Positions 26,501-32,500 of a stretch of 64,000 nt of DNA are shown in pieces (position 1 is the first letter of the stretch; each line of letters opens with the position of its first letter). Position numbers: made by a program. The stretch is from the sequence record PZ674596.1; one strand, 5' to 3'. This stretch comes from a phage.

Positions 26501-29500
26501 ACAAGAAATACACCAAATCGCAGATCGTCGAGATGTATCGGGAGAAGCCACTGGCTGAAATCATTGCGGCTTTGCAGGCAATCGACGACCGAAGAGCAAA
26601 AGACAACCCCACCGAGTCAGTAGAAGAGTAAACACAAGGCGTCCACAGGACGCCTTTTTTATCTCTTGAAAATATATAAGTACTTACTTATTATTTTCGC
26701 ATAACAACCACATAGGAAAACACATGATCAAAATCTATCTATTGGCAGTAGCCACAGGCGTTTCAGTGGCTCTCATCTACGGTTTACTGGTTCCGTCGCT
26801 GATTTCTACCAAGAGTGATTTAGCCGTCATGTTTGGAGTTATCGTTGGTTTTGGTGCTCCTGTAATCGGTCTTATTGCTGGTCGTAAGTTTATCAACTCA
26901 TTAATCAAAGCAAAGGGGAAATAAGTAATGAAGAAAGGTTTACTTGCAGTTGCTCTGGCGGCTATTTGCACAATGGGTCTTACTGGCTGTGATCGCGTGG
27001 AGCCTGGATACGTTGGCATCAAAGTAAACAAATTAGGTGAAGACAAAGGGATCGGTGAAGTGGTTGGCGTTGGTCGCCAATGGACAGGTCTTAACACCGA
27101 ACTTTACGTATTCCCGACCTTCAAACAAATGAAGACCTACGACGAACCGTTCACATTCCAGATGAGTGACGGTACTGCTATTGGTCACAAAATTGGCGTT
27201 GCGTATCTGGTTAATCGTGACAAGGTAACGACGGTGTTCCAGACCTATCGCAAAGGCGTAGACGATATCACCGAATCAGATCTGCGTCAGAAAATTGCCG
27301 ACTCTCTAAACCGTTTGGCCAGCCGTATGACCACTGACTCATTTATCGACGGTGGTAAGGCGCAATTGCTGGACAACGCACTGAAAGATATTCAGAAAGA
27401 GATGTCTCCGGTTGGTATTGAGGTACTGAGCCTGTCATGGGTTGGAAAGCCTGATTACCCAAAAACCGTCATTGAATCTATCAACGCCAAAGTAACGGCT
27501 AACCAGCGTACTCTGCAACGTCAGCAGGAAGTTGAACAACGTAAAGCTGAGGCGAATATGCTACGTGAACAGGCTAATGGTGAAGCTGATGCTATCCGTG
27601 CTCGTGCGCAAGCAGAAGCAGACGCCATTCGTCTGCGCGGTGAAGCTCTGCGTCAAAACCCGAACGTTATGGAACTGGAAGCCATCAATAAATGGAATGG
27701 CCAGTTACCGCAGTACATGACTCAAGGGGCTAACACTCCTTTCATTACAGTGAAATAACTCCCCTAAAAAGTTCAGGCGTCCAGTTGGACGCCTTTTTTA
27801 TCGCAATTATCTTATTAAGAAAATAATTTGTTTAAAAGGATAAGAAAACATGACAGCTATTAAGAAACTCTACGATGCCGCAAACGTGGCTCTGGATGTT
27901 ATTGATGATGAAGCAGCAAAAGGCTTTCCTGAACCTGATTGGGCGCATCAGCTACGAAACGCTATCGCAGAAATGACCCCACCAGATCCAACCCCCGAGG
28001 AGACAGACTGGCAGCGATTCATCCGTATGTACGCTCAGGAAATAGGTCCAACGCCAACGGCAGAGCAGGCAATGCTGCTGAAATACTTCAAAGAGGCGGG
28101 AGAGGATTTACCAATTGATGACTCAGCATATTGGTTCCACTGCGCATGGCGTAAGTATGACGTGATATTCACACAAGGCATGGGAAGCAAAGATATGGTT
28201 GTGTGGCATCTACTCCATATAGACACAGCCGTTGACAGAGTTATTGAACAGTTTTTCCCTAAACAAGAAGATTGATCGCCTATTCATAACTAACAAAATA
28301 AGTAAACACTAACCACAAAAGGAAAAACACATGAGAGTTTTAGTTCGAATCGTTACCACCACTGTCTATGACGTGTTTCCGCTTTTTATGGTCAAAGTCG
28401 ATGGCCTTAACGATGAAGAAACTGACGCGCTGATCCAGCGTACTCTTGTTGAATATACAGGTCATGACGCTGATTCAGTGATGGTTGATGACGATGGTGT
28501 TTGTTGGCATAACGGCAACTGTTGGTACGTAGAAGAGACTCAACAAATCAGTAATGAAGATGCTGAACATCTTGAGCGTATTTTAAGCATCAGCACTTTT
28601 GAGTGAGTTTACAGTAAAGTTTATATAAGTTAGTATCTACCTATCATGAAGATTTTTATTGAATACTTGTTACTCATCGTTTCAATAGCTTTTGTCATCG
28701 ACTGCATTTTCACTGGTGTCATTCGTAAAGTCTTTTCCCCGGTGCACGACGTAGTCATAAACGCTTTGGCTATCGTGCTCGTATTTAATTCAGCATTTGA
28801 TGTAATCAAAGAGGTGGCAGCATGAAGACCATTCCATTCGCGCTGTTGTTTCTTTCTTCGATCGTTGTGGCCGACACCACTGTTTATCAGTGTGAAATGT
28901 CTGTAGCCGACGTTAAGAATGGCGCTCTTACCGACGTCATAAAAGCACCATATGGAGCGATGGTCGTAGACAGCGGCGACCAGTTCTATGTTGTGCGTGA
29001 CGATCGAGTGTTGTCATCCCCATATCTCACAAATCGTAATGGCAAATTAACCGGCGTCGGAGAAGACCACTTCGTATACAACAAATACAAGGGCTTCTAT
29101 GGCGTTCACGCTTCTCAGCAAAGCTACCTTTTCGATGACTGCAAGGAGGTTGGGTAATGGCATTAACACTGGCAGGTCTGGAAATCGAGAAAACAAGCGG
29201 CTACTGGCGTGCTAAGGGTTTCAAGCAGCCTGGCATTCTTGAGCGTCTGGAACGTGAAGATGGGTATATCGTCCACCAGCGGCGTGAATGGCGTATGTAC
29301 GATCCAGAAACAGGAAAACTGACTACAAAAGCCGGAACACTTTGGGGTCTGTTAAAGAAAATACACTAAATGCAAACTGACTGCGGCACGTTCCGCAGTC
29401 ATATTTCATAGTCGTCACCGCTGACAGCATACACAATCAACTACCGCTGATAGCATATCGAGAGTCTATCTCACCGCTCACAGCATACTTTACTCGATTT

Positions 29501-32500
29501 TTTACCGCTGACAGCATACTTAAGAAATTGCATGAATAATGTGTCCCGGTATGGGTATAACCAGAACAAAATTACCGCTGGCAGCATACGAATGTCTGAC
29601 ATATACCATTAATTACCGCTGATAGCATATCCAAACAAAAATTCCTCAATAAAACACCGCTGACAGCATACGTTCTATCAGGGAGTAGCAGGCAATAAAT
29701 GCCTTTCACTACAAGCAATCAGCGCAATAGCAATAGAATGTTAGTGAGCGCAAACCTATATGGAATGCACTCTTCGAGGTTAGTAACCACTGGGGAGGTA
29801 TGACAGAGCATTGAGTGGTGATAGATGATTTACCGCTCACAGCATACGTTCATCTCACTATACCGCTGGTAGCATATCTTTAACCGTTCACAGCATACTT
29901 TTCAGAAAAATAGCCGCTGATAGCATACATTTCACCGCTGACAGCATATCAAAGCAGTTTGAGACTATTGGAAAGGATCTCAATCATCTTGATATTTTCA
30001 GGCGTCAAATTCTGCGAAAGTTCGGTTATCTTGTTGATAATGTTCTGTTTGGCATCAATTTCCCCAGCTTTCTCATCTGGTTTTTTGGGTTCGATGTCTT
30101 CAGGTTTTGGCGGTGCGACTTTGAGTTTTGGATTGCGGCTGTGAATCTGGATATAGATCGACCGCCCACGCTTAATCTCGCTGTATTCGAGATAGCCCAA
30201 ATCTTGGAGAGCTTTTAAGCCGTTACGTATAGTCTGATTCTGCGAGCTGACATTCCTGCTACTCAAATTGAGTCGCGCACGCAATCGAGCAAGCGATACC
30301 GGCGCAGGCTTGGTTGGAAGACTTTCGATGAAGGTGTACAGAGCCTGTGCTGTTTCTTTGCGTGGTAGCTTATTGATAACCTTTAACTGCAAAAGAACCT
30401 TATGGTCAAAGCGATATAGTTCGGCCAGCTTCGGTTCTGCATAGAACACCACCGTATCTTTCTGCTCGTTGTAGTCCACGCTATTGATGAGGTGCACCAT
30501 CAGAAGCGAGATCTTGTTAGAGCCGTCGACGTTCTTTTCTTCATACGTTCTCTGGAAAGACAGAGTTGTACGCATGATCTTCAAAAGACTGTTTGTAAGC
30601 CGGTCGCGGAGTGTTTTGCGGATCTGTGACGATGGATAGCCACAAAACTTAGCAAATTTCGTGATGCTTAACTCGACACGACCGTTAGGTTCGCCGTATT
30701 CTGCCAGCGAACGCACAACGCCCACCCACGTTTTGAAATCATGATCCATGTCGAGACGAGGACCGGTTATCTTGATATCGGAATAGCCTTCAGAACGGGC
30801 TACTTCGAGCTGGACAAGCTCCTTTGAAGCATCGATCTCATTTGGCTTGTTACGTTTACTGTATTTTGTTCCCTTAAGCGTGGGGACGAACAACCCCAGT
30901 CGCATCAACGCAATTGGTTGGACTGTATTGTTGCTATTAGGGACAAGTTCCCCTGTGTACAATTCAAGGGAACCTTCTTCAAAGTTGTCGATGTTATCTT
31001 CTACTTCTTTGTTATTTTTACCTTTTTTATTTTTTGTGGACATGTGGACACCTTTGTCATTCAACCGCTGACAGCATACTTGATTTGCCGCTGACAGAAT
31101 ACCAAAAACAGTTGGCAGCATACGGTGAACCGCTGACAGACTATCAATTACCGCTGACAGCATACATGAACATGACTTCAGACCAGTCGTGGCGCGGGTT
31201 ACAGCGATCGGGGATCTTATTTGATCTATATAAGGATCTATCTATGGATCTCTTTATTAGGATCTATCCTGTGGATATGTGAATAATTAAAACAGGCATT
31301 TACTACCTTCGGCGCACCTGGTGGGTTATCGTTGCCTCGGCTAACAATCACAGAAAAATGACATATGGATCTAAAACGCACGCGCTGGGTTCGTCGTCTT
31401 GAAGACGGCTCCTACACTATCGAATCAAATTCCAACCTGAATAAGCAGAAGTTGCTTTGTGACATCTGCGGTATAGCGGCGAAGTGCCCGATCTACGAAA
31501 CCAGAATTAAACTTGATAAGGCTGGTGTGAATTTTCATTTAAACAGTTGCATCAGGTACGTTCCATTACTCGCATTTCGTAAACCGATCATCGGATTGGA
31601 TGCCCCCTACTTCAACACACTCCGTTCAGGTGTGACGTGGCGAGATCGTTTATCACCAGACAAGCTGATTTGCCTCGTATCCGCAGACACAGGGAAAATC
31701 ATCCGTTTTGGGAAAGTAGACAAGGTTTACTCAGGCCCAGTAGACGAAATGTTGCGGAAACACAGCCGGTTTAATCATCTCTGTATGGGTGGTGAGAAAA
31801 TCGAGAAGGTAGAAGAAGTGATCCGCAAATCCTACGGACACTTTCTGACCAAAGATAGCCTGCTCACCGCAATCTACATCAGACATGTAAAACGTGAGTT
31901 CGACCTCGAATACCACAGCGAAGAAGAGCTTAACCTTGTTGACCCACGTCCAAAAGCTGGCGTCATAAGCATAAACGCAGCGCGTAAAAAGCCCACTGAC
32001 GCGCTGTAACCCTCCAGATCGTATATTGGCGTAGATAGAATCTACGCCTCCTCAAAATAGCTCTCATAGCGTTCTACAGTGATCCTGTCTTATTTTTAGT
32101 CATACAGACAAGCAAAGTTGCGCCACAATAAATAGGTATATACTTACTTATAAATTTTGTATATTAAGGCGCTCGTTTCATTCATAACATACCGTTATGC
32201 ATAGTTGTTTACCTTCTCATTGCTCTTAAAATTTGTATCAAAATAACCACAAAGGAAAAACACATGACTTTGCCATACGGCGTCATTTCTGACTGCCACT
32301 ACCACAAATGGGATGCGTTCTCCACGACGAACGCAGAGGGACTTAACTCCAGACTTGAAATACAGTTGGAAGCAACGAAAGAAGCAGCCATCGCCATGAA
32401 GAAGGCCGGTTGTAAGTACATGTTGGTTGCCGGTGATACATTTCACGTCCGAGGAACTGTGTCCCCTTCTGTTTTGCATTACGTAACTGAAACGTACAAG

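Follow-up and report, generated by a model that had tools for sequence, protein, structure and literature searches.

The stretch of DNA analysed here, a window of 64,000 nucleotides from the phage sequence record PZ674596.1, contains on its minus strand, between positions 29417 and 31286, what is very probably the plasmid-prophage replicon of an SSU5-like Escherichia coli phage-plasmid of the pECOH89/p09EL50 type. The replicon would be of the theta kind and under the control of iterons, and its homologues are the oriR-repA-incA region of P1 and RepFIB. Its sequence indicates that the replicon is complete and that it is more accurately ascribed to a P1/RepFIB family than to P1 alone, taking into account that its initiator, RepA, is slightly closer to that of RepFIB (50-52% identity) than to that of P1 (44%). 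The replicon type is already known, in an already described phage-plasmid family, and corresponds to the PlasmidFinder type IncFIB(H89-PhagePlasmid). New here are a base-level map, which locates 17 iterons, six Dam sites and two DnaA boxes along with the probable start codon of repA, and the tested homology to P1 oriR.

A replicon located exclusively on plasmids

The 2.1-kb replicon region is 99.8-100% identical to DNA of ~110-kb non-mobilizable plasmids of E. coli and Shigella, including p09EL50 of O104:H4. In PLSDB, 121 plasmid records hold the region at a coverage of at least 80%, nearly all of them ~110 kb in size and non-mobilizable, and p09EL50 is typed there with a single replicon cluster. 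Among complete E. coli genomes, 115 of 5,426 contain the region at a coverage of at least 80%, in 363 plasmid places and in no chromosomal one. The same DNA is found in the phage isolates PhiR41_1 and CMS-2020a. This distribution, with near-identical DNA on plasmids alone, bears out the plasmid-style maintenance proposed in an earlier reading made without database searches (hereafter, the sequence-only reading). The lytic-phage-like setting assumed in the same reading has to be abandoned, as the element is a temperate SSU5-like phage-plasmid (PMC3999498, PMC7969092).

The near-identical repA and origin, together with the SSU5-like backbone, place the element in the IncFIB(H89-PhagePlasmid)/pECOH89 type. 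Plasmid pECOH89 was isolated as plasmid DNA and described as phage-like, with SSU5 and pHCM2 as relatives; the RepA proteins of pECOH89 and p09EL50 have been reported to be identical (PMC3999498). For strain 47258, a record of 110,844 bp matches the region at 99.9% identity; this plasmid, p47258-4, has been typed as IncFIB(H89-PhagePlasmid) and shares its cell with an IncFIB(AP001918) plasmid (PMC12838234). The replicon, which already serves as a plasmid-typing marker, would keep in the cell, at low copy number, a widespread phage-plasmid that is present in ~2% of complete E. coli genomes and that in some cases carries blaCTX-M-15.

The RepA initiator

The central gene of the replicon is the following:

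29949-31043, minus strand: repA, encoding a 364-residue initiator of the P1 RepA/RepFIB RepA family (Rep_3 superfamily), assigned from the open reading frame (ORF), homology and domain matches.

The sequence-only reading had already recognised a 364-residue RepA-like gene running from 31043 to 29949 on the minus strand, and its use of upstream and downstream for the flanking repeats is right relative to the gene. Homology of the product to the initiators of P1 and RepFIB is clear. In tblastn searches against phage records, residues 32-309 match P1/P7 RepA with 43.5% identity (E 2e-64), identity to the SSU5 protein is 48%, and that to Klebsiella phage-plasmid RepA proteins reaches 85-88%. More than 5,000 plasmid records match RepA, mostly RepFIB-type initiators at ~50% identity (50-52% to RepFIB RepA). 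Profile searches of the 29949-31043 product against Rep protein families gave a match to Pfam Rep3_N (WH1) of 37.5 bits, above the curated cut-off of 22.4 bits (E 3.9e-9), and a match to PHROG 775 (E 5e-133); an NCBIfam scan assigned no family. A six-way alignment revealed a conserved core spanning residues 33-307, with ~90 invariant columns, and a C-terminal tail of ~55 residues common to SSU5 and FIB and absent from P1. The winged-helix initiators of the Rep_3 superfamily (RepE, pi, pPS10 RepA) combine an N-terminal WH1 domain with a C-terminal WH2 domain; Rep3_N was detected in all six aligned members, and Rep3_C in four of the six. In more than 100 plasmids the gene is kept intact, with 99.5-100% conservation.

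The 364-residue reading, from the ATG at 31043 to the stop codon at 29949-29951, corresponds to an inner start of a 404-residue ORF. The longer form, starting at the ATG at 31163 in the PGAP annotation, is very probably wrong, its first 40 codons being translated iterons. The start at 31043 is preferred because its Shine-Dalgarno sequence and ATG are conserved in three lineages, and because the homology to P1 begins at residue 32.

Public records carry two peculiarities regarding this protein. RepA is called with a 404- or 406-residue start inside the iterons (p09EL50, 6650-7864; Klebsiella phage pJN2-26, 1081-2298), and both PHROG 775 and several RefSeq phage records give P1-type RepA the name "replication helicase".

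The origin upstream of repA

Between repA and the outer edge of the replicon, the origin comprises these elements, listed from the edge inwards:

31278-31286, minus strand: DnaA box 1, TTATTCACA, a perfect match to TTATNCACA; its aligned counterpart in P1 oriR is the first box of a tandem pair annotated for DnaA binding.
31270-31278, minus strand: DnaA box 2, ATATCCACA, with one mismatch and with one base in common with box 1.
31206-31264 (59 bp), minus strand: six GATC (Dam) sites in a stretch with 66% AT; four sites belong to AGATCC heptamers.
31165-31205, minus strand: spacer with a conserved GC-rich block, CCCGCGCCACGACTGG, delimited in a multi-origin alignment.
31064-31164, minus strand: origin iterons (incC-like), five direct copies of (G/A)TATGCTGTCAGCGGT, with start-to-start spacings of 21, 21, 21 and 23 and a degenerate third copy.
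31076-31105, minus strand: candidate repA promoter, TTGGTA-18 nt-AAGTAT, at the junctions of iterons 3/4 and 4/5, proposed from positional homology to P1 PrepA and with a weak consensus match.
31043-31054, minus strand: Shine-Dalgarno sequence AAGGTG, which overlaps with GTGTCCACA, a weak DnaA-box-like motif whose last bases are the start codon.

A mismatch scan of the whole 64 kb with the iteron core ACCGCTGACAGCATA, as read on the plus strand, returned six exact copies, 11 copies with at most one mismatch and 16 with at most two. All 16 lie on one strand within 29417-31164 and none elsewhere, versus 0.07 matches expected from dinucleotide-preserving shuffles at the same stringency. A further copy at 31108-31122 has three mismatches; it stands exactly in the 21-bp register and is degenerate at the same place in relatives, and thus the total is taken as 17 iterons, with five upstream of repA (starts at 31150, 31129, 31108, 31087 and 31064). 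The sequence-only reading had counted 16 iterons, four upstream and 12 downstream in two groups; the 12 downstream copies and their grouping stand, and the other two figures need correction to 17 and five. According to the curated record, P1 incC also has five iterons, with spacings of 21, 21, 21 and 22, and the Klebsiella and Cronobacter relatives keep the same five origin iterons in register. The spacers between iterons have diverged in Klebsiella pJN2-26 and in the Cronobacter relatives while the anatomy is conserved. Some five iterons phased at ~21 bp directly upstream of rep are thereby found here as in the P1 oriR/RepFIB family.

The iteron-free left half of the origin can be aligned as DNA across P1, classic FIB, SSU5 and the subgroup to which the window belongs, the common elements being the DnaA boxes, the AGATCC heptamers, GATCCCCGATCG and CCGCGCCACG.CTGG. 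Over ~130 aligned columns, identity to the window is 71% for P1, 58-61% for FIB and 52% for the SSU5 module nearest repA, and blastn of this half against P1 oriR gave 77% identity over 118 nt (E 4.6e-16). As in other members of the P1 oriR/RepFIB family, the DnaA boxes lie at the outer edge of the origin, with TTATTCACA followed in tandem by ATATCCACA, and the cluster of GATC heptamers is situated between them and the iterons. The TATCCAC core of box 2 is kept in the Klebsiella, Cronobacter, P1 and FIB origins. Only one DnaA-box-like site had been noticed in the sequence-only reading; that site, ATATCCACA, is real, and it is not single, as the perfect TTATTCACA precedes it, 8 nt beyond the end of the interval then delimited.

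The six GATC sites in about 60 bp had been described correctly. Their cluster is the sole place in the window with at least four GATC per 70 bp, against a Poisson expectation of ~0.055 such windows, and in the alignment its sites fall in the same columns as the five Dam sites annotated in P1 oriR (spacings of 14, 12, 12, 10 and 7 in the window versus 23, 11, 10 and 7 in P1). By analogy with the characterised origins, the stretch 31206-31264 is likely the unwinding and methylation-control region. The distance from the last GATC to the first iteron is 41 nt in the window and 39 nt in P1, and the CCGCGCCACG.CTGG within this spacer shows no change among the window, Klebsiella, Cronobacter and P1.

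The last iteron and the ATG are only 20 nt apart, Shine-Dalgarno sequence included, which leaves no room for the repA promoter except within the origin iterons or upstream of them. In the curated P1 record, PrepA is TTGCTA-18-TAGGAT, at the same iteron junctions as the candidate listed above. On the plus strand, sigma-70 hits are at chance level (4 found, 4.0 expected). The motif AAAGGT(G/A)TC(C/A)ACATG at the start of repA recurs in three relatives, and its aligned counterpart in P1 is the element CTATCCACA, located downstream of incC; the DnaA-box-like GTGTCCACA within it can be regarded as a putative, weak DnaA site only.

The control array downstream of repA

The second array begins immediately after the gene and is organised as follows:

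29832-29948, minus strand: proximal group of control iterons (incA-like), five direct copies, the first abutting the repA stop codon.
29671-29831 (~160 bp), minus strand: iteron-free spacer, with a conserved block of ~60 nt at ~29740-29799 that contains the palindrome GGTTAGTAACC.
29417-29670, minus strand: distal group of control iterons (incA-like), seven direct copies, from the mismatch scan.
29378-29401, bidirectional: terminator-like hairpin, which closes the replicon against the convergent 70-residue ORF at 29157-29369.

The iterons of the proximal group start at 29934, 29913, 29883, 29862 and 29832, and, after the gap, those of the distal group at 29656, 29615, 29574, 29504, 29473, 29443 and 29417. 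A second, incA-type array downstream of rep, another trait of the P1 oriR/RepFIB family, is therefore present here as 12 copies right after the stop codon; similarly, copy 9 of P1 incA starts at the last base of repA in the curated record. The P1-like succession of oriR, incC, repA and incA advanced in the sequence-only reading holds, since protein, origin DNA and order of elements all match that record.

The window has an all-direct array of 12 iterons split by a conserved block with GGTTAGTAACC, and this block is shared with the Klebsiella and Cronobacter relatives. The ~60-nt block shows 78% identity to Cronobacter pCsaC105731a (E 2e-8), and its 20-nt core, TTCCCCAGTGGT(C/T)ACTAACCT, is also present in Klebsiella pJN2-26; neither the block nor the core was found in the P1, SSU5 and FIB loci compared. 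On the repA strand, the block folds as RNA with z = -2.99 versus shuffles, and an Rfam gathering scan of the whole window returned nothing within the replicon. The possibility that the block is a relic of an SSU5-type iteron (CCACTGGGGAGG versus CCACTGTAGTGAG) was discarded, given 5 mismatches out of 13 and a non-significant blast match to SSU5 (E = 5). It could be a site for an additional regulator, of phage or host origin, or a structured 3' untranslated region of repA.

In PhiR41_1 (PV340561), a clean deletion of 87 bp between the iterons at 29417 and 29504 has removed three control iterons, leaving nine of the 12. By analogy with P1-type replicons, in which fewer control iterons should raise the copy number, this deletion may represent natural copy-number variation. 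A broader and doubtful proposal, put forward tentatively, would combine these observations: the control region would be more than a plain incA, with the block as a regulator site or structured 3' untranslated region, the number of iterons as a rheostat, and a coupling through Dam, in which the Dam-family methylase of the element might link origin firing to the phage life cycle. If this were true, gain and loss of iterons by recombination could tune the copy number of cargo such as blaCTX-M-15.

Proposed mechanism of replication and copy-number control

The mechanism proposed here starts from what was described above on anatomy, homology and a location on plasmids alone, interpreted in the light of P1 (the curated annotation of AF234172 and papers cited in PMC2865523 and PMC4980987) and of FIB (PMC11983097). 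The curated P1 record annotates the DnaA site, five Dam sites, the RepA-binding iterons, PrepA inside incC, and incA.

Thus, as in P1 and FIB, monomers of RepA would bind the five phased origin iterons, and host DnaA would bind the tandem boxes at the outer edge. Together, RepA and DnaA would then open the adjacent A+T-rich region of AGATCC heptamers and recruit the host helicase. The six GATC sites would make firing Dam-dependent and would permit sequestration after replication, as occurs in P1 oriR. The geometry of the region, with the promoter in or upstream of the iterons, suggests that RepA would repress its own synthesis. Finally, the 12 downstream iterons would titrate RepA and, by handcuffing both in cis and in trans, pair with the origin iterons, resulting in low copy number and incompatibility, as proposed from P1 incA and FIB. 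In FIB replicons, the downstream iterons alone are able to displace the replicon (PMC11983097).

P1, SSU5 and classic FIB all have iterons of another sequence, and on this basis the replicon is expected to constitute an incompatibility specificity of its own, which its iteron core, the same as in the Klebsiella pKPHS1-type and Cronobacter relatives, predicts to be shared with them.

Weighing of the evidence and alternative explanations

Several observations weigh against the interpretation of the locus as an iteron-controlled plasmid replicon that works in the manner of P1. The literature provided no experiment on this replicon, and RepA-iteron binding, origin opening, Dam dependence and incompatibility are deduced by homology. 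The RepA of the window is below the threshold for Rep3_C (WH2), no solved structure was matched by sequence, either with the single protein or with the six-member profile, even at E<=10, and the single-sequence AlphaFold2 model was unusable (pLDDT 40, pTM 0.28). No promoter on the repA strand passes a sigma-70 consensus scan, and the candidate proposed from positional homology has a weak -10. Moreover, the element carries its own DnaE, DnaB-like helicase and toprim primase, so that the helicase and polymerase acting at the origin may be those of the host or those of the element.

This last point leads to a first alternative, according to which the RepA/iteron origin would be, or would also be, the lytic (vegetative) origin, firing with the DnaE, helicase and primase of the element. 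The replicon is indeed located in the middle of a block of replication and nucleotide-metabolism genes, and the two tandem oriR-like modules of SSU5 hint at a more complex use of origins in the group. No separate lytic origin or repL-like gene turned up, an absence that counts little because no search was aimed at a lytic origin. Against this proposal, lytic growth of P1 uses an origin other than oriR. In addition, plasmid replication limited in copy number is recognised by such traits as the control array of 12 iterons and the homology to P1 oriR/incA and to FIB (PMC11983097), and a vegetative role for this origin is considered unlikely.

Far less probable is that the replicon is vestigial or weakly active and that the ~110-kb element is kept by another, unrecognised origin. 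A precedent is offered by F, whose FIB replicon is little expressed and in part redundant (PMC11983097), and many genes of the element are annotated as hypothetical only. However, a decaying replicon is difficult to reconcile with a repA as intact and conserved as described above, with the preservation of all 17 iterons, the GATC sites and the DnaA boxes, and with an anatomy that holds at 85% RepA identity in Klebsiella and Cronobacter. The single replicon cluster assigned to p09EL50 in PLSDB also argues against it, as does the annotation of the p09EL50 record, which contains no other initiator in 27,700-60,400 and 61,700-95,000 (~60% of the record).

That the repeats are attachment sites, a partition centromere or another class of repeat rather than initiator sites is extremely improbable: although two 20-bp repeats flanking repA in the pJN2-26 record (1078-1097 and 2348-2367) are annotated as "phage attachment site attL/attR", a label that looks like an artefact of automated prophage annotation, the window has 17 copies and not two, phased at multiples of ~10.5 bp in one orientation, they occupy the places of the annotated RepA-binding iterons of P1 and have the GT(A/G)TGCTG core in common with them, and an element that is never chromosomal does not need an attachment function.

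Genomic context of the replicon

The genes that surround the replicon in the window, whose assignments agree with the annotation of p09EL50, include the following:

914-2254: DnaB-like helicase.
19063-22581: DnaE-type Pol III alpha subunit.
24294-25289: 5'-3' exonuclease.
32264-35495: SbcCD-like pair.
36881-39196: NrdA.
39303-40445: NrdB.
41537-42667: ThyA.
47181-47774, plus strand: Dam-family N6-adenine methyltransferase, encoded by the element outside the replicon proper (Pfam PF05869 Dam, E 2.9e-38).

These enzymes constitute an SSU5-type module and not a T-even one. The T-even-like replication enzymes of the sequence-only reading were misassigned, the polymerase being a bacterial DnaE-type Pol III alpha and the helicase DnaB-like. 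The Dam-family enzyme is a possible trans-acting partner of the GATC cluster, which it could methylate independently of host Dam; pECOH89 has been reported to carry dam (PMC3999498).

The ORFs flanking the replicon, at 31365-32009 and 29157-29369 (both on the plus strand), are conserved phage-plasmid genes, belonging to PHROG 2105 and PHROG 804, respectively. Neither has a Pfam match, and the labels given in other records ("ASCH RNA-binding domain", "Cre-associated protein") found no support. An insertion sequence-type DDE transposase is encoded at 6201-7463 on the plus strand (Pfam DDE_Tnp_1_4, E 2e-55). Three tRNA genes at 10877-11120, also on the plus strand, are the sole matches of the Rfam gathering scan in the window; two tRNAs have been reported in pECOH89 (PMC3999498). 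With respect to p09EL50, which has three additional ORFs (2467-4489, ~2 kb) between the gene for an SPFH-domain protein and a 141-residue ORF, these are missing from the window (~27760-27850) and from PhiR41_1, a difference that is a small accessory indel in the backbone.

Comparison with known systems

The best-characterised relative is P1 (AF234172), like the element of the window a phage-plasmid. Its RepA is homologous, with 43.5-44% identity over a 275-residue core, and its elements appear in the same order: tandem DnaA boxes, AGATCC/GATC cluster, GC-rich spacer, five iterons phased at ~21 bp, repA, and a second array at the stop codon. The left half of the origin is 71-77% identical as DNA. 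The iterons have the GT(A/G)TGCTG core in common and nothing more, their 3' halves being unlike (TCAGCGGT in the window versus GAGGGAAA in P1), and specificity and incompatibility should differ from those of P1 for this reason. IncY specificity, defined by the P1 iteron GATGTGTGCTGGAGGGAAA, is accordingly absent from the window, whose consensus is (G/A)TATGCTGTCAGCGGT; the replicon works like P1 but is not an IncY replicon. Other differences concern the control array (nine iterons in P1, three direct and six inverted, versus 12 in the window, all direct and split 5|7 by the 160-bp spacer), the number of GATC sites (five versus six), the gap between iterons and ATG (56 nt versus 20 nt) and the protein, which in the window has additional extensions of ~30 residues at the N-terminus and ~55 at the C-terminus. 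In P1, parAB is next to the array, whereas no P1-type parAB follows directly downstream of the incA-like array of the window, where the terminator-like hairpin and convergent small ORFs are found instead. In p09EL50, a candidate ParA-like ATPase is encoded ~32 kb from the replicon. The phage backbones are unrelated, that of the window being SSU5-like and not of the Punavirus type.

RepFIB (F, P307, pO157; IncFIB(AP001918)) has the closest RepA outside the phage-plasmid group. As in the window, rep has origin iterons on its upstream side and control iterons on its downstream side, and a DnaA site is present (PMC11983097); both systems have a GATC cluster in the left half of the origin and the C-terminal tail of RepA. 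However, the RepFIB iteron is unrelated (ACAGCTTATAT type) and appears in mixed orientations, and identity in the left half of the origin (58-61%) is below the value for P1. RepFIB and the type of the window coexist in strain EC47258 (PMC12838234), and their presence in one cell indicates that they are compatible.

Much closer are the Klebsiella pKPHS1-type replicons ("IncpKPHS1") and Cronobacter pCsaC105731a, with RepA proteins 85-89% identical, the same iteron core, five origin iterons in register, the same layout of GATC sites and DnaA boxes, and the conserved non-iteron block. Their control arrays differ in the number of copies, 4+4 in Klebsiella and 6+5 in Cronobacter versus 5+7 in the window. 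In the published description of IncpKPHS1, the iterons listed downstream of repA number only four and a recognised Rep domain is lacking (PMC6735626).

The phage-plasmids SSU5, pHCM2 and pLF82 (Cyrano; IncFIB(pLF82-PhagePlasmid)/IncFIB(pHCM2)) have the same backbone and flanking genes, with 73-77% DNA identity on both sides of the replicon, a homologous RepA (48%) and the same origin design, with a different iteron (CCACTGTAGTGAG). In SSU5 (JQ965645, 1755-2400), two tandem oriR-like modules precede repA, whereas the window has one, contiguous with the distal SSU5 copy. Each SSU5 module contains one or more DnaA boxes, a run of GATC heptamers and about five iterons at 21-bp phasing, and the GATC sites of the module nearest repA are decayed (GAACC, GACCC). 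The backbone homology between SSU5 and the window ends at 31205 and resumes at 29367, and thus the unit formed by iterons, repA and iterons can be considered a diverged or swapped specificity cassette. The comparison of pECOH89 with pLF82, which have near-identical genes but RepA proteins only 48% identical, fits this reading (PMC3999498).

Finally, the replicon of pECOH89, p09EL50 and p47258-4 is the same as that of the window, with nothing substantive different. In public records of this type only the rep gene is annotated, and iterons, Dam sites and DnaA boxes are unmarked. Leaving the general understanding of such replicons unchanged, the base-level map presented here can serve to annotate them, to study their copy number and to design curing cassettes that contain just the downstream iterons.

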